DNA from: Mobula hypostoma | Lineage: Eukaryota | Length of the DNA: 64,000 nt | Direction of reading: 5' to 3' | Assembly: GCF_963921235.1 (NCBI RefSeq) | Contig: NC_086097.1 | Location: 156,304,001-156,368,000 of the forward strand | Part shown: piece by piece, positions 8,869 to 61,910 of the stretch | How positions within the stretch are numbered: the first letter of the stretch is position 1 | Layout of the letters: the number at the start of each line of letters is the position of its first letter | Notes under the pieces: generated by a model | Databases searched by the model: none | Told to the model about the DNA's origin: nothing | The model's input: only the letters and a program-made list of their open reading frames with translations | Translations under genes and position numbers: made by a program

Positions 8869-9993
8869 ATAATTGGATAATTTGTTCTGGAAAAGTTTCC
8901 TTTGGGTAAGGTTCTTCTGAGAACTTCTTCTGCAAAGGTGTGGTATTGGAAATCGAGCAAATTACGAAACAGTTAGTATGATCCTATTTCTAATTGATTC
9001 ATCTTCACTATCCAATTCTTCTATATTTCCATCCTGTACCAAGTATTCTTAGGGCCGTTTACTTCTTCCTTGAGCAGAGGCCGAACAGGCACTTCAATAA
9101 AAGCAATAATCATTTTTGCGATACCTTAAATGTAGCAAATTTCTTCAAAGTGCTTTGAGGAGGCCCATCAAAATGGAATATAACACAAACAGCCTTAGAA
9201 AAGAAAGAGGATTTAGGGCCCTGGAATTTTGCTGAACCATGAAAGGGAGATTTGAGAAAAAGAATAAGATTTTATGTTTTGAATTTAACATTTGTTCAAC
9301 CTGGGTTTATTTTGGACAGCATACACATTGGGGATGGGTAAATAGACACAAATTAGGACAAGACAGCAAACATCTGAATGATCTAAAATTTACTGAGATT
9401 AGAATGAGAGAAGGTAGCTGAAGTGCATCGGAATAGTCAAGTTTTGATCAAATGAGTGAATGGCCAAGAGCTTCAGTAGTTGTGTGTGCTGGGCAGCAGT
9501 GGACGTCACAGTCCCAACCATTAATTCCCATTTTCTCCTAATTCCCTTTGATGACGGCACACCTGGTTTTCATCAAGACCTACAGCATAAGAACCCTGGC
9601 TTTGCACCCACTAGTTGCCAGATCGTTGGTTTTGCCAGTGCAGTAATTAACGCTTCCTGGCTGCTTAGGATTATGTGTCCTAAGTTTTGCTTCAGTACCG
9701 AGATTTATCTATGAAACTCAGGCTACGTCCACACTAGACCAGATAATTTTGAAAACGGCGATTTCACGTAAAAATGATAGGCATCCACACCAGGTGTTTT
9801 TGAATATACCTCTGTCCACATTAAAAACGGTATTTTGCCGAATCTCCTCCTATTGGGCATGCGCAGGACACATCTACAGAAAGCAACTGAAGAGGAGGCA
9901 GTATTCTATTTCCATTTCTGCTGTGGCCTTGTACTATTTCAGTTGGTTAAAATCTGGAGTATCTACAACAACAGCGAGAGAAAGTTTTCAACA

Positions 9994-10999
9994 ATGTCTG
10001 CGAGAGATACAAAGAAAACCTCCATTGGAAAAAATAGGCCAAACTTTTTCATTTGGATAGACGATGAAGTCGAGCTGCTTCTGCGAGTTACAGACGACTA
10101 CAAAGTCAGCAAAGCAGTGGAGAACATGGACTGGGAGTCGTGCCAAACCAAATACAACGACATCCTCGACCGCTATAAAGAACAGTACCTCACAGCAGAG
10201 CGGTCGGAATCTCTGGGTAAGGACTACCCGCACAAATTGGACGATATAACCAAGACAATTATTGTAACCAAACTTACGGCTATTTGCCACAAATACCGAC
10301 AGGCAGTGGACGCAGGACGAAAACGTGGACACGGTAGAGTCGTTCTACTGTAATTTGAGTTGTGTGAGCTGATCTGGGGGGCAGGGGGGGCACACCAGCC
10401 ACCTCAGCAGTTCAAGGCGGCATTGAAACCTGTGATTTGGAGGATAGGGTCAACGCACATCACAGCGACCGATGTATAGTCTCTTCAACCGCTTCGACGA
10501 GTACGCTGACTCTGACAGTTTGGACCAAGCAACAGGTGGTGGCTGCAACATGTTTGGTGTCGAATCTCACCGCAAAAGACTTGATGCGCGCGTGTCCAGT
10601 TACAGACTGGAAAACCTTTAAAAGAAATTGCCAAACGATGGACAGCTGTTGGCTGTTGCTCAGGAGGACTTAAAACTAAAGAAGCAAATACTGGAGCACA
10701 TGGAGTCAGCCGACAGGGAGTTCATGGACAGTATGACCCGACTGACGACGAACATTGAAAAACTGTCTAACTGTGTTGCAGAGGGATTTGCAATGATGAG
10801 GAATTTGATGGCCCCCCACCAGTACTTTTCACCGCCACAATACCAGCCTCACAGCCACTACAACAGCTACACATACAGACACACAGACCCCCGGGTGGCC
10901 CCACCAATATCTTCCTCACTTCCACAGAGGGGTCACTCTGCAAACATTTCCTACAGCCATAGTCTCTTCACAGATGAAAGTAATTTTATTTTTACCTGA
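9994..10999 (+). pseudogene. Harbinger Myb/SANT (trihelix)-like DNA-binding protein, disrupted
   Basis: FIWIDDEVELLL...WESCQTKYNDI...YRQAVDAGRKRGHGRVV, stop at 10351-10353, continued by the QLLAVAQEDLKLKKQILEHM coiled-coil ORF (10628-10999). Confidence 0.82.
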
Positions 11000-16004: not shown

Positions 16005-16300
16005 ATCTTTTCCACTCTGGATCCCCTCTTCCTTTTCTCTTCTCCTCACCTACTTATCACCATCCCCTGATGCCCCTCCTCCTTCCCTTTCTCCCATGGT
16101 CCACTCTCTTCTCCCATTCATTCTCTACCGGCTATTACCTCCAAGCTCCTTACTTCATCCCTCTGCAAAACCTACCCAATGAAGGGTCTCACCCGAAACT
16201 TTGACTGTTTATCCATTTCCATAGATGCTGCCTGGCCTGCTGAGGTCCTCCAGCATTTTGAGTAGGTTGCTTGGATTTCCAGCATCGGCAGATTTTCTCT
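16005..16300 (+). mobile_element. Penelope family A 3' region (pyrimidine tract plus terminal repeat)
   Basis: C/T-rich tract then ATGAAGGGTCTCACCCGAAACTTTGACTG...GATGCTGCCTGGCCTGCTGAG. Confidence 0.75.
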
Positions 16301-21910: not shown

Positions 21911-23542
21911 ACTATGTATAAGCTGTTGTTGTCTCTCAAAGTCTTTCAACGGAAGAGTATATTAGCTTCCTACAATTAAAAGCAGAGAGAAAAAACAGAC
22001 CTAAGTTTATTCATGGTTCAGTCTTACTCTCAGATTCTGTTAAACAATTCAATAAGATGCTGAATTAATTTCCCTCCGTCTCTCCGATATTGACGAACTG
22101 ACTGCTGCAAAATTAGTTTTCTTTTTGTTTTTGTTTCCAATTTTTGATAGTTGATTACAAAGTGGCAGTTAACTTAGTGTCAAGGGCGCAAATTCACAAA
22201 GCTGCACTTTTAAATACCTTTCATACATCAAAAGCCTTTTCCAATTCCAATGATTATGTTCAGCCAACTACCAGCACTGAAGAAGACAATTAGATTATAC
22301 CCCATGAGCTACTCTCTGTAACAGTGCACTGTCTTTCATAAATGTCCTCTTTCTACTTTCCAATGTCCTTCAAAACTATCTCTTCATGCCATCATATATT
22401 TTTGCATTGAACTATGTTGTCATGTAACAGAATGCTCAACTAAGCTGCCTTTATGTGTGAGGTACAGTAGCAGATGTACTAGTAAAGCAAAACTAGGTAT
22501 TTTGACAAAATGCCTATTAAACAACATCTGCAGCCATGTCAAGACACTGTAACTATCTCAGAATGGTGATTAAATTGTTGTTAATGCCTTGTCCCTAGGC
22601 TGTCCCTGAAAGCCATCACTTGCTGCTTTACATTCCACTGTCAGAAGGTTTTTCTTTCAAATTGAGAAGGAGGGATATAATGAACAGTTCATTATGCAGT
22701 GGATCATAAATTAATACAATTTAATTAATGTGTCAATTGCCAATCATTGGAAGCTGTGTGCAAAGAAATGAACTGATTTGTAAATCAGCACACTAACAAA
22801 ATATAGCTCCTTTAACATAAAGCATCACAGGAGCATTATCAAATAAAAAATCATACAGAGCCTGAAAATGAGATACAATGACAGTACATTGGTTGGGAGT
22901 TTTTAAAGATACACAGAGAGGAAATGAAAGTCAGAGATTCCAGACAATTTCAGCTGAATGCACAGTCATAATGGAGGAGTAAATTATCTTTTTTTATCAT
23001 TTATTTCTGTTTCAGGATGACTTTATTTTTAAGTTGTCCCATGGTAATGAGGGGAACTTCCTTCAAGTACAGGTCTCCAGGTTCTGAGGTGGCTAATGAA
23101 GCAAATGACCATAAGACCTTGACATAAGAACTGAATTTTACCACTCAGGCCATTGAATCTGCTCCACCATTCCATCATGACTAATTTATTATCCACCTCA
23201 AACCCATTCTCCTGCCTTCTCCCCATTACCTTTGACGCCTTGATTAATCAAGAACCTATCAATTTCCTCTTAAGTATACTCAATAAATTGGCCTGTATGA
23301 CAATCTGTGACAATGATTTCCACAGATTTACCATTCTCTCATTAAAGACAATTTTCCTCATCTCTGTTCTAAATAGATGTCCCTGTACTTTGAAGGAGGA
23401 CCCCTGATTCTAGGCTCCCCCACTATAGGAAACATCTCCACATCCACTCTATCAAGGCCTTTCAATATTCAATAGATTTCAATGAAATTTCCCCTATCCA
23501 TTCTTCTAAACTTCAGTGAGTACAGACCTAGAGCCATCAAAC

Positions 23543-23920
23543 CATAAGACCATAAGACAAAGGAGCAGAAGTAGGTCATTCAGCCCATCGAGTCTGCTCC
23601 GACATTTTATCATGAACTGATCCATTTTATCCTATTTAGTCCCACTGCCCCGCCTTCTCACCATAACCTTTGATGCCCTGGTTACTCAGATACCTATCAA
23701 TCTCTGCCTTAAATACACCCAATGACTTGGCCTCCACTGCTGCCCGTGGCAACAAATTCCATAGATTCATCACCCTCTGACTAAAAAAATTTTTTCGCGT
23801 TTCTGTTCTGAAAGGGCGCCCTTCAATCCTGAAGTCATGCCCTCTCGTACTAGACTCCCCCATCATGGGAAACAACTTTGCCACATCCACTCTGTCCATG
23901 CCTTTTAACATTCGCTTTAA
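23543..23920 (-). mobile_element. Young CR1 3' fragment nested in the older CR1
   Basis: Near-identical to 54285-54668; (CCATAAGA)n tail; CAAAC duplicated at 23538-23542 / 23921-23925. Confidence 0.9.
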
Positions 23921-24074
23921 CAAACGCTCCTCATCTGTTAACCCTTTCATCCCAGAATCATTCTCGTGAATGTCCTCTAGACCCTCTCCAATGCCAGCAC
24001 ATCTTTTCTTCAATAAGGGGCACAAAACTGCTCACAAAACTCCAAGTGTATGAAAAACAATGCCTTATAAGGCT

Positions 24075-24272
24075 AACAACAAGAATTCTGCAGGTGCTGT
24101 AAATTCAAGCAACACGCATCAAAGTTGCTGGTGAACGCAGCAGGCCAGGCAGCATCTCTAGGAAGAGGTACAGTCGAGCCCTGACAAAGGGTCTCGGCCT
24201 GAAACGTTGACTGTACTTCTTCCTAGAGATGCTGCCTGGCCTACTGCATTCACCAGCAACTTTGATGTGTGT
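24075..24272. mobile_element. Palindromic Penelope family A mini-element with hammerhead in the loop
   Basis: 69-bp inverted arms 24109-24177 / 24207-24275 (64/69); 14-bp TSD TGCCTTATAAGGCT (24061-24074 / 24273-24286). Confidence 0.88.
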
Positions 24273-25277
24273 TGCCTTATAAGGCTTCTGCAATGAATTC
24301 CTGCTTTTGTATTTTAGTCCTCTCAAAATGAATGCTAACATTGCATTTGGCTTCCCTACCACTGACACAACCTGAAAGTTAATCTTTAGGGAATCCTGCA
24401 CAAGGACTCCCAAATCACTATACACCTCAGAATTTTGAAATTTCTCCCCACTTAGAAAATAGTCTATGCTTGTATTGTTCCAACAAAGTGCATGATCATG
24501 TGCTTCTCTGCACTATATTCCCTCTTTGCACATTCTCTCTATCTGTCTTTCCTCCTGCTCCCTCAACATTATCTCCCTCTCCACCTATCCTTGTACCATC
24601 CGAAAACTTATCTATAAAGCCATTGGTTCTTTCTTCCAAATCATTGACCCCTGTGGCACACCACTAGTCACTGGCAGGCAACCAAAAAAGGCCTGCTTTA
24701 TTCCCACTCTTTGCCTCCCGCCAGTCAGCCAATCTTCCATCCATTCTGTATTACCATAGATTCTTATCTTGTTAAGCAGCCTCATGCTTAACAATCCAAA
24801 TAAACAACACCGACTGACTCCCCTTTGTCTATCCTGCCTGTTGTTTCTTCATAGGATTCCAACAAATTTTCCCTTAAGGAAGCCATGCTGACATTGGCCT
24901 ATTTTTTTCATGTGCTGCCAAGTAATCCGAAATCTCATCCTTAATAATAGACTTCAACATCTTTCCAACCACTAAAGTCAGGCTAACTGGCCTATAATTT
25001 CCTTTCTTCTGCTGCCGCACCTTCTTGTAGAATAGAGTGACTTTTTCCATATTCCAGTCCTTTGGAACCATTACATAATTTAGTAATTCTTCAAAGATAA
25101 TTACTAATTCTTCCACAATATATTCAGCTTCCTCTTTCAGAACGCTGGAGTTTAGTCCATTTGGTCCAGGTCATTTATTCACCGTCAGACTTTTCAGCTT
25201 TCCAAGCACCTTCACCTTAGTAATAGTAACGGCACTCACATTTATCCCCTGAGATTCATGTTTCTGACATTCTGTAA

Positions 25278-28200
25278 GTGTCTTCCACATTGAGGATGAA
25301 CACAAAATACTTATTAAGTATATACGTAAATGATGCTGGAGAAGTGGTTCCTCCATTATCATCTCTCCAATATCATTTTCCAGTGGTCCAATGTCCACTT
25401 TCATTTTCTTTTACTCTTTATATATTTGAAAAACATTTTTGTATCCTATTTCATAACCAGTGCAGAGAGACAGAGGGGTGTAAAGTGAGCGTAGAAGCAA
25501 AAAGTACAAAGGGGAAAAGTAAAAGTGGCAGGCCGACAAATCCAGGGCAAGCATTAAAAAGGGCTAAGAGAGTTGTAAAAGAGCGCCTGAAGGCTTTATG
25601 TGTCAATGCAAGGAGCATTCGTAATAAGGTGGATCAATTGAAAGTGCAGATTGTTATTAATGATTATGATATAGTTGGGATCACAGAGACATGGCTCCAG
25701 GGTGACCAGGGATGGGAGCTCAACGTTCAGGGATATTCAATATTCAGGAGGGATAGACACGAAGGAAGGGGAGGTGGGGTGGCGTTGCTGGTTAAAAAAG
25801 AGATTAACGCAATAGAAAGGAAGGACATAAGCCGGGAAGATGTGGAATCGATATGGGTAGAGCTGCGTAACACTAAGGGGCAGAAGACGCTGGTGGGAGT
25901 TGTGTACAGGCCACCTAACAGTAGTAGTGAGGTCGGAGATGGTATTAAACAGGAAATTAGAAATGTGTGCAATAAAGGAACAGCAGTTATAATGGGTGAC
26001 TTCAATCTACATGTAGACTGGGTGAACCAAATTGGTAAAGGTGCTGAGGAAGAGGATTTCTTGGAATGTATGCGGGATGGTTTTTTGAACCAACATGTCG
26101 AGGAACCGACTAGAGAGCAGGCTATTCTGGACTGGGTTTTGAGCAATGAGGAAGGGTTAATTAGCGATCTTGTCGTGAGAGGCCCCTTGGGTAAGAGTGA
26201 CCATAATATGGTGGAATTCTTCATTAACATGGAGAGTGACGTAGTTAATTCAGAAACAAAGGTTCTGAACTTAAAGAGGGGTAACTTTGAAGGTATGAGA
26301 CGTGAATTAGCTAAGATAGACTGGCAAATGACACTTCAAGGATTGACGGTGGATATGCAATGGCAGGCATTTAAAGGTTGCATGGATGAACTACAACAAT
26401 TGTTCATCCCAGTTTGGCAAAAGAATAAATCAAGGAAGGTAGTGCACCCGTGGCTGACAAGAGAAATTAGGGATAGTATCAATTCCAAAGAAGTAGCATA
26501 CAAATTAGCCAGAGAAAGTGGCTCACCTGAGGAATGGGAGAAATTCAGAGTTCAGCAGAGGAGGACAAAGGGCTTAATTAGGAAGGGGAAAAAAGATTAT
26601 GAGAGAAAACTGGCAGAGAACATAAAAACGGACTGTAAAAGCTTTTATAGATATGTAAAAAGGAAAAGACTGATAAAGACAAATGTAGGTCCCCTGCAAA
26701 CAGAAACAGGTGAATTGATTATGGGGAGCAAGGACATGGCAGACCAATTGAATAATTACTTTGGTTCTGTCTTCACTAAGGAGGACATAAATAATCTTCC
26801 AGAAATAGTAAGGGACAGAGGGTCCAGTGAGATGGAGGAACTGAGCGAAATACATGTTAATAGGGAAGTGGTGTTAGGTAAATTGAAGGGATTGAAGGCA
26901 GATAAATCCCCAGGGCCAGATGGTCTGCATCCCAGAGTGCTTAAGGAAGTGACCCAAGAAATAGTGGATGCATTAGTGATAATTTTTCAAAACTCGTTAG
27001 ATTCTGGACTAGTTCCTGAGGATTGGAGGGTGGCTAATGTAACCCCACTTTTTAAAAAAGGAGGGAGAGAGAAACCGGGGAATTATAGGCCGGTTAGCCT
27101 AACGTCGGTGGTGGGGAAACTGCTGGAGTCAGTTATCAAGGATGTGATAACAGCACATTTGGAAAGCGGTGAAATGATCGGACAAAGTCAGCATGGATTT
27201 GTGAAAGGAAAATCATGTCTGACGAATCTCATAGAATTTTTTGAGGATGTAACTAGTAGAGTGGATAGGGGAGAACCAGTGGATGTGGTATATTTGGATT
27301 TTCAAAAGGCTTTTGACAAGGTCCCACACAGGAGATTAGTGTGCAAACTTAAAGCACACGGTATTGGGGGTAAGGTATTGGTGTGGGTGGAGAATTGGTT
27401 AGCAGACAGGAAGCAAAGAGTGGGAATAAACGGGACCTTTTCAGAATGGCAGGCGGTGACTAGTGGGGTACCGCAAGGCTCAGTGCTGGGACCCCAGTTG
27501 TTTACAATATATATTAATGACTTGGATGAGGGAATTAAATGCAGCATCTCCAAGTTTGCGGATGACACGAAGCTGGGTGGCAGTGTTAGCAGTGAGGAGG
27601 ATGCTAAGAGGATGCAGGGTGACTTGGATAGGTTGGTTGAGTGGGCAAACTCATGGCAGATGCAATTTAATGTGGATAAATGTGAAGTTATCCACTTTGG
27701 TGGCAAAAATAGGAAAACAGATTATTATCTGAATGGTGGCCGATTAGGAAAAGGGGAGGTGCAACGAGACCTGGGTGTCATTATACACCAGTCATTGAAA
27801 GTGGGCATGCAGGTACAGCAGGCGGTGAAAAAGGCGAACGGTATGCTGGCATTTATAGCGAGAGGATTCGAGTACAGGAGCAGGGAGGTACTACTGCAGT
27901 TGTACAAGGCCTTGGTGAGACCACACCTGGAGTATTGTGTGCAGTTTTGGTCCCCTAATCTGAGGAAAGACATCTTTGCCATAGAGGGAGTACAAAGAAG
28001 GTTCACCAGATTGATTCCTGGGATGGCAGGTCTTTCATATGAAGAAAGACTGGATGAACTGGGCTTGTACTCGTTGGAATTTAGAAGATTGAGGGGGGAT
28101 CTGGTTGAAACGTATAAGATCCTAAAGGGATTGGACAGGCTAGATGCGGGAAGATTGTTCCCGATGTTGGGGAGGTCTAGAACGAGGGGTCACAGTTTGA

Positions 28201-28388
28201 GGATAGAGGGGAAGCCTTTTAGGACCGAGGTTAGGAAAAACTTCTTCACACAGAGAGTGGTGAATCTGTGGAATTCTCTGCCACAGCAAACTGTTGAGGC
28301 CAGTTCATTAGCTATGTTTAAAAGGAAGTTAGATATGGCCCTTGTGGCTACAGGGGTCAGGGGGTATGGAGGGAAGGCTGGGTTCTGA
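25278..28388 (+). CDS. CR1 ORF2 APE endonuclease-reverse transcriptase (first ~60 codons come from the flanking antisense CR1)
   Basis: VNARSIRNK, GITETW, YRPPNS, MGDFN, SDHN (APE); NYRPVSLTS, QHGF, YLDFQKAFDKV, GVPQGSVLGP, FADD (RT); no stops over 1036 codons. Confidence 0.93.
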   Translation: MSSTLRMNTKYLLSIYVNDAGEVVPPLSSLQYHFPVVQCPLSFSFTLYIFEKHFCILFHNQCRETEGCKVSVEAKSTKGKSKSGRPTNPGQALKRAKRVVKERLKALCVNARSIRNKVDQLKVQIVINDYDIVGITETWLQGDQGWELNVQGYSIFRRDRHEGRGGGVALLVKKEINAIERKDISREDVESIWVELRNTKGQKTLVGVVYRPPNSSSEVGDGIKQEIRNVCNKGTAVIMGDFNLHVDWVNQIGKGAEEEDFLECMRDGFLNQHVEEPTREQAILDWVLSNEEGLISDLVVRGPLGKSDHNMVEFFINMESDVVNSETKVLNLKRGNFEGMRRELAKIDWQMTLQGLTVDMQWQAFKGCMDELQQLFIPVWQKNKSRKVVHPWLTREIRDSINSKEVAYKLARESGSPEEWEKFRVQQRRTKGLIRKGKKDYERKLAENIKTDCKSFYRYVKRKRLIKTNVGPLQTETGELIMGSKDMADQLNNYFGSVFTKEDINNLPEIVRDRGSSEMEELSEIHVNREVVLGKLKGLKADKSPGPDGLHPRVLKEVTQEIVDALVIIFQNSLDSGLVPEDWRVANVTPLFKKGGREKPGNYRPVSLTSVVGKLLESVIKDVITAHLESGEMIGQSQHGFVKGKSCLTNLIEFFEDVTSRVDRGEPVDVVYLDFQKAFDKVPHRRLVCKLKAHGIGGKVLVWVENWLADRKQRVGINGTFSEWQAVTSGVPQGSVLGPQLFTIYINDLDEGIKCSISKFADDTKLGGSVSSEEDAKRMQGDLDRLVEWANSWQMQFNVDKCEVIHFGGKNRKTDYYLNGGRLGKGEVQRDLGVIIHQSLKVGMQVQQAVKKANGMLAFIARGFEYRSREVLLQLYKALVRPHLEYCVQFWSPNLRKDIFAIEGVQRRFTRLIPGMAGLSYEERLDELGLYSLEFRRLRGDLVETYKILKGLDRLDAGRLFPMLGRSRTRGHSLRIEGKPFRTEVRKNFFTQRVVNLWNSLPQQTVEASSLAMFKRKLDMALVATGVRGYGGKAGF

Positions 28389-29799: not shown

Positions 29800-30805
29800 T
29801 TACACAATGGCCGTTCCCACAATGTTTGCTGTGCTTACTGCTTGTCATCTCCAACAGGATCCCACCACCAAGAACATCTTTCCCTCCTCTCATTTTTTTG
29901 CTTTCTGCAAGGATGGCTCCCTACAGGATTCCCTTGTCCATTGGCCCCTCCCCACTGATCTCCCTCCTGGCACTTATCCTTGCAAGCAGAACAAGTGCTA
30001 CACCTCCTTCCTCACTACCATTTAGGGCCCCAAACAGTCTTTCCAGGTGAGGCGACACTTCACCTGTGGGTCTTTTGGGGCTGTATACAGTGTCCGGTGC
30101 TCCCAGTGTAGCCTCCTGTATATCAATGAGTCCCAACGTAGATTGGGAGACCTCTTCACCAACCACCTATGCTCCATTTGATGGAAGTGGGATCTTCCAG
30201 TGGCCACCCATTTTAATTCCACTTCCCATACCTATTCCAATATGTCAATCCAAGGATCCACGGCCTCCTCCACTGTCGTGTTGAGGCCACACTCAGGTTA
30301 GAGGAACAACGCCTTATAGGTGTATTCCATCTGGGTAGCCTCCAACCTGATGGCATGAGCATCGATTTCTTGAACTTCTGGTAATGCCCCATCCTCCTTC
30401 TTCACCAGTCCCCATCCCCTTTTCCCCCCTCACCTTATCTTCTTGTCTGCCCATCACTTCCTTCTAGTGCTTCTCCCCCCTTTTCTTTCTCCTATGGCCT
30501 TCTGTCTTCTCGTATTTGATTCCCCCTTTTCCAACTCTGAATCTCTTTCACCAATTACATTCCTAGCTCTTTACTCCATCCCTCCCCTTCCCTGTTTCAC
30601 CTATCACCTTGTGTTTCTCTCTCCCCTCCCCCTAAACTTTTAAGGCTACTCCTCATCGTTTTTTTTTCCAGTCCTGCCGAAGGGTCTCGGCTGGAAATGT
30701 CAACTGTACTTTTTTCCATAGATGTTGCCTGGCCTGCTGAGTTCCTCCAGCATTTTGTGTGAGTTGCTTGGAATTCCAGCATCTGCAGATTTTCTTTTGT
30801 CTGTG
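29800..30805 (+). mobile_element. Penelope family A 3' portion (GIY-YIG endonuclease remnant plus terminal repeat)
   Basis: PPGTYPCK..KCYT..GPKQSFQVRRHFTC...VYSVRCSQCSLLYINESQRRLGD; terminal repeat with decayed hammerhead at 30674. Confidence 0.85.
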
Positions 30806-49306: not shown

Positions 49307-49412
49307 CAACACACATCAAAGTTGCTGGTGAATGCAGCAGGCCAGGCAGCATCTCTAGGAAGAGGTACAGTAGACGTTTCAGGCCGAGACCCATCGTCAG
49401 GACACTTTGACC
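49307..49412 (-). mobile_element. Penelope family A solo terminal repeat with hammerhead core
   Basis: Reverse complement CTGACGA-T-GGG-TCTCGG-CCT-GAAA-CG-TC; ACCCATG repeated at 49300-49306 / 49413-49419. Confidence 0.8.
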
Positions 49413-58835: not shown

Positions 58836-60465
58836 ACAGAGCCTGACAGTAGCCAGGTTTGGCAGGAACCTGTACAAGTGATTGACAAATCCTAAAAAAG
58901 GGCTGCAACTGTGATACCTCCTTTAACCTTGGGGCATCCACTGTTTGAATTTTCTCAGCAGACTGATGTAATCATTGTGCATCAACCATGTGATCACAAT
59001 AAGTGATGCTTGGTTTAAAGAATCCACACTGGTCTCGTCATGCTCTGAGCCCATGATCTTCTGATCATTTTTACACTCTCTTGAGTTTTGGAGATGTCCC
59101 TTGTCATCCTTACTGGTATAATGATGTCATCCAGGTAACACTAGGTGCCTGGGCATCCTTACAGCATCTGGTCCATAACTTTCTGCAGAGAGCAGGTGTA
59201 GATGCGACTCCAAAAATAATTGTAGTGATAAAGCCCTTTGCCATTCTTTATGGTGAGAAACACTTTAGACTCTTCTTCCATCTCCATCTGAAAGCAGGCC
59301 TCAGCTTAGTCCACTTTGCTAAAGTGTTTTCCTTCAGAAAAGTTTGCAACAATATTCTCTATCCTGAGCTGAGGGTCTTAATCTATTAGAGTACTGAGTT
59401 GATGGTAACCTTAAAATCACCCACAGATCCTGACAGACCATCCTTCGTGGCTATGGACTACTGGCTTTGTCCATGGGCTCCACTCAACCTTGAAAAGAAT
59501 TTCTTCAGCCTCCATACGATCTTGCTCAAAGGCTACCTCAACATAGATAGTATAAGGAACTGGACAGGCTTGCGAAAAATTTGTGCAGAATTTTCATTTA
59601 ACACAATTTTACTTTGGATATGTTTGAATTTTCCAATGCCATTCTTGAACACTGCTGTGGCATCATCCAGTATCTTTCTTAAATTGCTTTCATATGGCAT
59701 CATTGCAGGGGATCTGGCATGTAAATGGTGAATGCATCTCAATCAAATTGTCGTCTCAGCCAGTCATGCCCCCACAATCCTAGCCCTCCTATTTTTCCCA
59801 TATGCAAACTCAATCTGGCTTGTTGTTTGGTGTATTTCACTGTTATGAATGTCATTCCCATAAGAGTTACCTTCTTTATTACTGTTTAGGTTCTTAGATA
59901 GATACCTGCAGGCTTCAGTTTAGTATCTTTGAAATGCCATTCAAACTCATTTTGTGGAATGACTGAAAAAGCTGTACCGGTGTCTAATTTCATTTTAATT
60001 AAATTGCCATTCATTTCTGGCATAAGCTATATTGTTTGTCTATTTAAAAACGCAAACCCGAGGAAATCTTCAGATGCTGGAAATTCAAGCAACACACACA
60101 AAATGCTGGTGGAATGCAGTAGGCCTGGCAGCATCTATAGGAAGAAGCACAGTTGACGTTTTGGGCCGAGACCGTTCGTCAGGACTAACTGAAAGAAGAG
60201 ATAGTAAGAGATTTGAAGAGATTTGAAAGTGGGAGGGGGTGGGGGAGATCTGAAATGATAGGAGAAGACAGGAGGGGGAGGGATGAAGCTAAAAGCTGGA
60301 AAGCAGATTGGCAAAAGGGATACAGAGTTGGAGAAAGGGGAGGATCATGAGACAGGAGGCCTGGGGAGAAAGAATGGGGGAGGGGAGCACCAGAGGAAGA
60401 TGGAGAGCAAGCAAGGAGTATTGTGAGAGGGACAGAGAAAAAAGGGAGAGAAAATAAAGGGGGAG

Positions 60466-61267: not shown

Positions 61268-61303
61268 AGTCCTGACGAAGGGTCTCAGCCCGAAACGTCG
61301 ACT
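61268..61303 (+). ncRNA. Minimal type I hammerhead ribozyme motif (intact core)
   Basis: AGTC-CTGACGA-A-GGG-TCTCAG-CCC-GAAA-CG-TC-GACT: stem I AGUC/GACU, stem II GGG/CCC, palindromic ACGU stem III; predicted cut after C61299. Confidence 0.8.
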
Positions 61304-61767
61304 GTACTTCTTCCTATAGATGCTGTCTGGCCTGCTGTGTTCACCAGCATTTTGTGTGTGTTGCTTGTCTATTGTTAATTTTCAGACTATAAATCTCAAG
61401 GCTGCACAGTCCTATGTCACGATCATCATTATCAGATCTTTCATCAACAGCATGCAGATTAGTGTCCTTTTTCAAACTGCAACTTTACTTTTTACCTTTA
61501 ACTCTTCCTTGTGCAGTCCATTTGTTTTTGTCTGCTTGACATGCTTTTTGTATGTTGCATTTTCTGCAAGTTTCCCCTTTAAATCTGCATTTATTTGGTG
61601 TATGCGAGCCCCTGCCACAACTGTAGCACACTTTGTTGGCCAGGCTGGTTTCTGTTTAGTTGATGCTCATTCTCATGTTCATTTCAACTCAATTGCATCT
61701 CTGTCTCTGATTTCCTTTGAAACAGCAAGTTCTGTTGCCGTTTTGAATATAAGTTGTGTTTCAGTTA

Positions 61768-61910
61768 TGATCAGTGTCTACTTTCATTGATGAAGGGTCT
61801 CGGCCAGAAATGTTGACTGTTTACTCTTTTTCATAGATGCTGCCTGGCCTGCTGAGTTCCTCCAGCATGTTGTCTTGCTTGGATTTTCAGCATCTGCAGA
61901 TTTTCTCATC
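61768..61910 (+). mobile_element. Penelope family A solo terminal repeat in Gypsy 2 gag
   Basis: TTGATGAAGGGTCTCGGCCAGAAATGTTGACTG...; 8-bp TSD TTCAGTTA (61760-61767 / 61911-61918); removal rejoins gag IQKQFLTE/TQLIFK. Confidence 0.85.

Follow-up and report, generated by a model that had tools for sequence, protein, structure and literature searches.

Here we describe a short palindromic insertion in the genome of Mobula hypostoma (assembly GCF_963921235.1), located in a window of 64,000 nt on contig NC_086097.1 (positions 156,304,001 to 156,368,000 of the forward strand), which is the whole stretch of DNA that was analysed. The insertion is free of coding sequence, as the initial annotation had stated, and splits a decayed LINE fragment that we take to be CR1-like. 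The minus-strand frames on either side of it resemble the C-terminus of a 1,036-aa LINE open reading frame at 25278–28388; this frame is stop-free, carries endonuclease-like and RT-like regions, lies about 1 kb from the insertion and is likely a young copy. Two diverged (74–84%) LINE 3' ends are located to the left of the insertion (23099–23470 and 23540–23913), about 440 bp apart.

Structure of the insertion

The features of the locus are listed in Table 1. Element positions take the predicted hammerhead cut as their origin, with -1 corresponding to C17 and +1 to the first base beyond the cut (window position 24209).

Table 1. Features of the insertion and its surroundings, in window positions
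Feature	Position	Strand	Remarks
Host sequence: decayed LINE reverse-transcriptase C-terminal fragment, split by the insertion	23636..24512	-	
Left TSD copy, 14 bp	24061..24074	+	100% identical to right copy
PLE tail, 34 nt, element +101..+68	24075..24108	-	matches parent element L141; one arm only
Short, tail-bearing arm: inverted 5'-truncated pLTR piece, +67 to -1/-2	24109..24177	-	
Decayed minimal type I hammerhead	24177..24212	+	motif comparison with PMC4209133
Long, tail-less arm: 5'-truncated pLTR piece, -31/-32 to about +65..+67	24178..24275	+	
Right TSD copy	24273..24286	+	first 3 nt overlap the right arm end and also fit the element end

The inverted arms described initially were recovered: the short arm and positions 24207–24275 are reverse-complementary at 64 of 69 positions, three of the mismatches being G-U on the plus-strand transcript (24116/24268, 24167/24217 and 24176/24208), as claimed, and the remaining two C-A. 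The TSD was likewise found as an exactly repeated 14-mer, and the tail on the left arm had been overlooked. The resulting hairpin of about 200 bases had a folding z of -18.7, with none of 200 shuffles equally stable. That the arm stops 2 nt from the cut is true in part: it can be read to -2, but its end is either -1 or -2, because position -32 of the other arm could likewise account for the A at 24177. This last A of the short arm is common to both arms and constitutes a 1-nt microhomology. The long arm spans the cut, and its inner end at -31/-32 is the commonest stop of the PLE family.

The hammerhead motif

The loop of the palindrome is, as the initial annotation proposed, a hammerhead motif; judged by eye, it is of the minimal type I. 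Helix I is formed by 24177–24180 and 24209–24212, the C3-A9 core by 24181–24187 and helix II by 24188–24200, followed by GAAAC (24201–24205) and GUH (24206–24208), with the predicted cut after 24208. Rfam detected no hammerhead at gathering score or at E<=10 in either this copy or the intact parent, so the label was assigned by comparison with the motif described in PMC4209133. Across the window no Rfam family reached its gathering score, and the parent and this copy gave generic miRNA-hairpin matches alone, far under the gathering scores.

Compared with the parent, the copy carries T-30>C in helix I, G-23>A at core position G8 and C-1>T at C17 (U in the RNA). With respect to the conserved elements (C3-A9, G12-A14, U16.1-H17 and helices I and II), G8 is replaced by A and helix I contains a mismatch; the parent has an intact core and helix I, as do 71 of 102 young copies. 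The notion of a hammerhead closed by a 69-bp stem was not upheld, as the long stem and helix I of the ribozyme are different structures: the stem pairs the 3' strand of helix I and the cut-site bases in a different register, with pair probabilities of 0.91–1.0 for +1 to +5 and about 0.5 for -2/-1. Because G8 is changed, helix I is broken and the cut site is paired by the arm, the ribozyme of this copy is likely dead, as judged from its sequence.

In L291, L305 and eight more near-cut junctions (about 10 of 100 listed), the arms are joined through a helix I overlap, so that the long stem is an in-register extension of helix I; scaled to all 885 near-cut junctions, about 90 copies would have this arrangement. 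These in-register copies, and not the present locus, are the ones in which a 60-bp stem closes the hammerhead.

Parent element and family

The same genome contains a full-length parent PLE, frameshifted over three frames (L141, 2681-7154; G000:C1:7,976,500-7,985,500, minus strand). It is a pLTR-ORF-pLTR unit of 3,510 bp (about 3.5 kb), whose pLTRs, 96.6% alike, form a direct repeat of 965 nt at a distance of 3,510 bp, with a hammerhead motif in each. Pfam matches to RVT_1 (E=1.5e-5) and, C-terminally, to GIY-YIG (E=8e-4) were both below the Pfam cut-off; DKG and CxxC motifs are present, and a PDB search with the parent RT gave no match. In both C-terminal frames, GIY-YIG is preceded by a C-X4-C-X2-C linker. 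A CX2-5CxxC linker is described as a mark of Neptune/Nematis and not of Penelope/Poseidon (PMC8557442), and by its linker alone the parent matches Neptune/Nematis. Mobilisation by a Penelope RT/GIY-YIG protein, as proposed initially, is likely. The insertion is PLE-derived and TSD-flanked, belongs to a large class and has a parent with RT and GIY-YIG.

Copies that include the element body are rare, because a 28-mer just beyond the tail has just 66 exact matches in the genome. Of 30 copies reaching past the tail (L319-L348), 23 end within about 900 nt of body, mostly within 450; many have 5' ends at +49..+108, close to where starts normally lie, as though priming had occurred at other, downstream sites and copying was halted there.

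Searching the 3.48-Gb genome at the DNA level yielded 3,156 candidates; all 40 that were scored were palindromic, and the centres differed among the 30 displayed. Because this first set was biased by the query, copies were sampled by their tail end instead, using the first 100 of 27,188 exact genome-wide matches to the tail 33-mer; a second tail pattern matched 1,841 times, and the first 90 of these were added. After removal of 7 duplicates, this junction-blind sample comprised 183 copies, all on contig C1: 98 with an adjacent inverted piece, 74 solo copies and 11 with a direct piece. Mini-palindromes ("minis"), defined by an intact outer end and by inner ends that lie within -60 on both arms, accounted for 59 of the 183 (65 by a looser rule) and share the plan of an inverted truncated copy with a one-sided tail and TSD. 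Mini lengths run from 123 to 297 bp, and the TSDs measure 13–15 bp in 40 and 12–17 bp in 48 of the 59. The outer end lies near +102 in tail arms; for tail-less arms it falls within +57..+74 in 77 of the 80 sampled. Scaling from 36–40 minis among the first 100 copies gives about 9,800–10,900 young minis, extrapolated from 10.6 Mb; in an older subfamily, 23 minis were found among 50 copies sampled of 2,444. The present locus is an ordinary, very short head-to-head PLE insertion, one of an estimated ten thousand such stubs.

The window contains six further pLTR-end copies of three ages (16182–16295, 30667–30800, 49309–49401, 60063–60186, 61268–61361 and 61793–61903). The copy at 49309–49401 (minus strand) is a tail-less solo copy that starts at -31.

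Formation of the palindrome

The locus is probably a single, very short head-to-head insertion of PLE pLTR pieces, likely made from two nick-primed cDNAs that were joined via a 1-nt overlap. The element protein would likely cut the target 14 bp apart, and one cDNA would likely be primed from each nick, at two neighbouring internal sites of the RNA (about +101 and about +66). On a template that was presumably uncut, the cDNAs would stop at -1/-2 and -31/-32, and the two short products may then have been linked at the shared A by end joining with 1-nt microhomology. For the Anolis element, it was found in vitro that both target strands are cut and extended and that the RT starts at two adjacent internal sites bounding the tail; ribozyme mutants insert normally, so cleavage is not needed (PMC11167929).

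In 10 of 18 longer inverted copies (56 scorable copies in total), the two arms carry different subfamily alleles, which indicates that they can come from different RNAs. Longer inverted copies with unequal arms often have different subfamily alleles, and in seven of the longer inverted copies (L182, L188, L191, L194, L197, L264 and L283) the tail-less arm usually extends farther upstream than the tail arm. The two arms of minis share subfamily alleles in 32 of 38 cases, which counts against independent templates, and short arms go with short and long with long (65/3/2/26, p=6e-18); both patterns would also be expected from fold-back of a single cDNA or from later arm-to-arm conversion.

Self-priming has been proposed for inverted PLE junctions (PMC3846280), and by this route the locus would be a truncated PLE insertion whose mirror arm arose when one cDNA folded back or switched onto itself. 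The concordance of the mini arms, the correlation of arm ends within minis (rho 0.43) and several perfect palindrome junctions (L036, L050, L078, L091) are consistent with such an origin. We nevertheless regard it as unlikely, given that each arm has a fixed outer site of its own (tail versus none), that arms of different subfamilies occur in the longer copies at the frequency given above, that fillers and asymmetric junctions are common and that the two start sites are used on both strands in vitro (PMC11167929).

Inner ends relative to the cut

Inner ends were scored on 253 arms. The breakpoint plot suggested by the initial annotation is indeed non-uniform, but its peak lies upstream of the cut, at a distance of about 30 nt, and not at the cut itself. 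The stop rate per nt was 0.033 at -23..-38, the 5' edge of the hammerhead, compared with 0.0032 at +30..-22 and 0.0014 beyond -60 (enrichment ratio for -23..-38, 10.4; p=5e-38). At the cut site (+2..-2), the stop ratio of 2.1 was not significant (p=0.08). Counting the farthest end per insertion gave peaks at -31 (13), -32 (9) and -35 (8), with 64 of 183 within -23..-38. Both arms peak at one RNA position despite starts about 35 nt apart, and solo copies also pile up at the hammerhead 5' edge. Sequence upstream of the cut is present in the called arms of 173 of the 183 insertions, and two of the remaining 10 have other upstream pieces; we infer that most templates were uncut at the ribozyme.

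The pile-up, together with the lack of a cut-site excess in tail arms (1 event, ratio 0.47; 0 of 165 at +1), gives no support to the claim that the ribozyme cut defined the arm end. As the inner ends accumulate upstream of the cut, some 30 bases away, the ribozyme likely did not shape this copy. Tail-less arms showed a cut-site excess, with 5 events and a ratio of 7.5 (uncorrected p=0.002); helix I is overlapped in 2 of the 5. Of the 73 tail-less arms at risk, 4 end exactly at +1, and this minority may represent a small cut-defined class.

The present junction is also readable as +1, one filler base and then -32, which would mean that the short arm halted at the ribozyme-cut RNA end and acquired one chance or untemplated G, and that the long arm was made from uncut RNA. 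The tail-less arms ending at +1 and the many young copies with intact core and helix I agree with cleavage-defined ends. Yet the excess is confined to tail-less arms, whereas the short arm of the present locus is a tail arm; the G matches template base -1; and for the Anolis element no cut-ending reads were found (PMC11167929). This reading is therefore quite improbable.

Why copying stops near -31

A start site at A-32/A-36, which would make the pile-up the 5' end of the RNA, is a plausible cause, although we would stop short of calling it probable. The zone contains two pyrimidine-A steps (A-36 and A-32), which we take to be initiator-like. Ends at pyrimidine-purine steps made up 36 of 128 in the zone versus 18% expected (p=0.005, post hoc), a signal that is absent elsewhere and suggestive only. 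Against a start site, none of the 7 copies whose body runs to the locus edge starts at -23..-60 (among 30 copies examined out of 66). Inspection by eye of 39 short solo copies gave no clear signal of a cap-derived extra G, and a cap G ahead of T-30 is indistinguishable from G-31.

An RNA-structure or protein roadblock is a possible but doubtful cause of the pile-up, and a 3' splice-site complex appears somewhat unlikely. The zone can be taken for a polypyrimidine tract in which AG occurs at -35 and -31, and a D. virilis intron ends at the same place of the hammerhead, the 5' end of helix I (PMC4209133). However, neither an upstream exon nor any upstream 11-mer of the element was found before tail arms ending at -20..-42, and a genome search for a spliced copy gave 1 match, a decayed palindrome. 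Three joints, from -32 to -330, -349 and -388, with unknown letters between, occur in contigs whose RNA status is guessed.

As a tentative and rather doubtful overall picture, a template of about 135 nt, from the start site to the tail, may be copied twice by the element protein to give about ten thousand hairpins, with a minority of tail-less arms recording in vivo hammerhead cleavage within the retrotransposition complex and with neighbours swapping centres by short-patch gene conversion.

Junctions and neighbouring copies

Recurrence of the junction at other loci, raised in the initial annotation, was observed: the exact junction is found 6 times genome-wide, the present locus included. At least two subfamilies are represented among them, and in one copy the tail sits on the opposite arm. 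In a separate junction search with 6 matches, one (L145) was not a palindrome. Because junctions vary and its 6 same-junction copies span subfamilies, the present locus is not an amplified unit. An amplified subfamily with this junction was considered and rejected, as the 6 matches include the present locus and are of mixed subfamilies.

Junctions commonly show 1–5-nt overlaps or fillers. The 885 near-cut junctions were obtained by a pattern search, and 100 of them were listed and tallied by eye. Among these 100 were 10 helix-I overlaps, 6 clean and 4 ambiguous +1 ends, and ends at -3 (11), -5 (14), -10 (13) and -12 (8), which means that the microhomology classes (-3, -5, -10, -12 and helix I) equal or exceed the clean +1 ends. 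Based on this tally by eye, microhomology sets the fine structure of the junctions. Of the 100 listed, 40 are unique, and the biggest class has 10 members.

Rare junctions are shared by some neighbouring copies. One is found 3 times genome-wide, all within 2.3 Mb (L355-L357; G000:C1:27,999,909; 28,958,670; 30,295,897), and another twice, 1.9 Mb apart (L358-L359; G000:C1:3,842,167; 5,740,647); in both sets, flanks and TSDs differ, and the central patch alone matches the likely donor. Three of the 6 copies with the junction of the present locus lie within 4.2 Mb on C5. L351 and L352 (G000:C5:8,385,888; 8,425,245), which have this junction and carry their tails on opposite arms, are 39 kb apart and 99.4% identical over 167 bp. 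The present locus has no same-junction neighbour on C1.

Among the 100 listed junctions, 7 same-class pairs lie within 2.5 Mb (1.7 expected, p=0.002); for the rare classes, the number is 4 versus 0.16 expected (post hoc). A pre-chosen class of 10 copies, used as a control for clustering, had no pair within 2.5 Mb (closest 5.3 Mb), so that local sharing is not general to all junction classes. The pattern suggests short-patch gene conversion between neighbouring palindromes: since flanks and TSDs differ and donor alleles occur around the centre only, gene conversion or templated joining fits, and copying of a unit does not. Whole-unit re-mobilisation of clustered copies was rejected for the C1 trio and is disfavoured for the C1 pair, donor alleles being restricted to the centre.

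These data bear on the initial proposal of a retrozyme- or MITE-like element, a dedicated non-autonomous ribozyme retroposon whose palindrome would be propagated as a unit and whose ends the ribozyme would set. Such an element would account for the fact that about one-third of the copies are 120–300-bp palindromes with TSDs, for the sixfold recurrence of the exact junction, and for three neighbour sets that share rare junctions, including one pair 99% identical over 200 bp. The proposal is largely refuted and highly improbable: no junction class exceeds 10 of the 100 listed, so that none is dominant; same-junction copies span subfamilies and tail sides; clustered copies share only the central patch with the likely donor and lack its distal alleles; head-to-tail cut-to-cut units were not found; and at the present locus folding of the ribozyme is blocked by the stem, and its G8 is missing.

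Significance and comparison with known systems

With tens of thousands of young copies, this PLE family is a natural experiment that allows base-level statistics. An estimated ten thousand near-perfect stems of 60–100 bp could feed dsRNA pathways, if transcribed, and the junction patches common to copies hint at sequence exchange between palindromes over 0.04–2.3 Mb.

In L1 twin priming, each side of a staggered cut primes a cDNA, and the two are linked through microhomology to give an inverted insertion within one TSD. The internal annealing site of the second L1 primer varies, and the arms have no overlap; in the present family, the two starts are a fixed distance of about 35 nt apart, and the arms therefore overlap and form a palindrome.

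Metazoan non-LTR retrozymes (bioRxiv 10.64898/2026.07.22.740005; see also PMC7229834) are similar in being non-coding, hammerhead-bearing and derived from PLE pLTRs, and in using a borrowed RT. As described in the bioRxiv work, they are head-to-tail tandems with a ribozyme per unit, whereas the present locus has one head-to-head junction, a single decayed hammerhead in place of a complete one per unit, and ends set by PLE start sites. Nor are the insertions of the present family bounded by the cut, as their outer ends lie at about +65 and about +102 and their inner ends mostly at -23..-60. The features of a MITE are also absent: in place of a unit of fixed length with a constant centre, the minis vary in length over the range given above and 40 of the 100 listed junctions are unique, and in place of TIRs and a fixed TSD that match a DNA transposase there are pLTR arms, a one-sided tail and a variable TSD.

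The motif resembles the minimal hammerheads of metazoan PLEs in its 4-bp helix I, the absence of loop 3 and the palindromic 15.1-16.1 (PMC4209133). The same source already records motifs paired on opposite strands at distances of 100–700 bp, as well as numerous single motifs that derive from truncated PLEs. The present copy differs from those hammerheads in lacking G8 and one helix I pair and in being a single hammerhead, and its helix II is shorter than that of Schistosoma (7–8 bp, PMC4209133). The Poseidon element PAc of Anolis carolinensis is alike in having two adjacent RT starts that bound the tail downstream of a minimal hammerhead (PMC11167929), and the parent described here differs by its CX4CXXC linker before GIY-YIG.

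The route of inverted and tandem PLE insertion and the role of the hammerhead are stated as open in PMC8557442 and PMC11167929. In the passages of the literature that were examined, we found no description of the pile-up at the hammerhead 5' edge, of the one-third share of minis or of local junction sharing. The closest match is with the insertions of EN+ PLEs (PMC3846280, PMC8557442, PMC2377424), which, as described there, likewise consist of head-to-head pLTR pieces with a TSD and a 30–40-bp tail on one arm, show palindromes and microhomology at their junctions, and have a parent with RT and C-terminal GIY-YIG; the tail is described as optional (PMC8557442, PMC3846280). The same set of features is present here, with an RT and GIY-YIG parent, hammerhead-bearing pLTRs and an inverted truncated copy with a 34-nt tail and a TSD. 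The present family differs in its arms of about 100 nt without an ORF between them, in the share of such stubs (about one-third of sampled copies) and in the concentration of inner ends at the hammerhead 5' edge. The architecture is thus already published, and the present locus is an ordinary representative of it.
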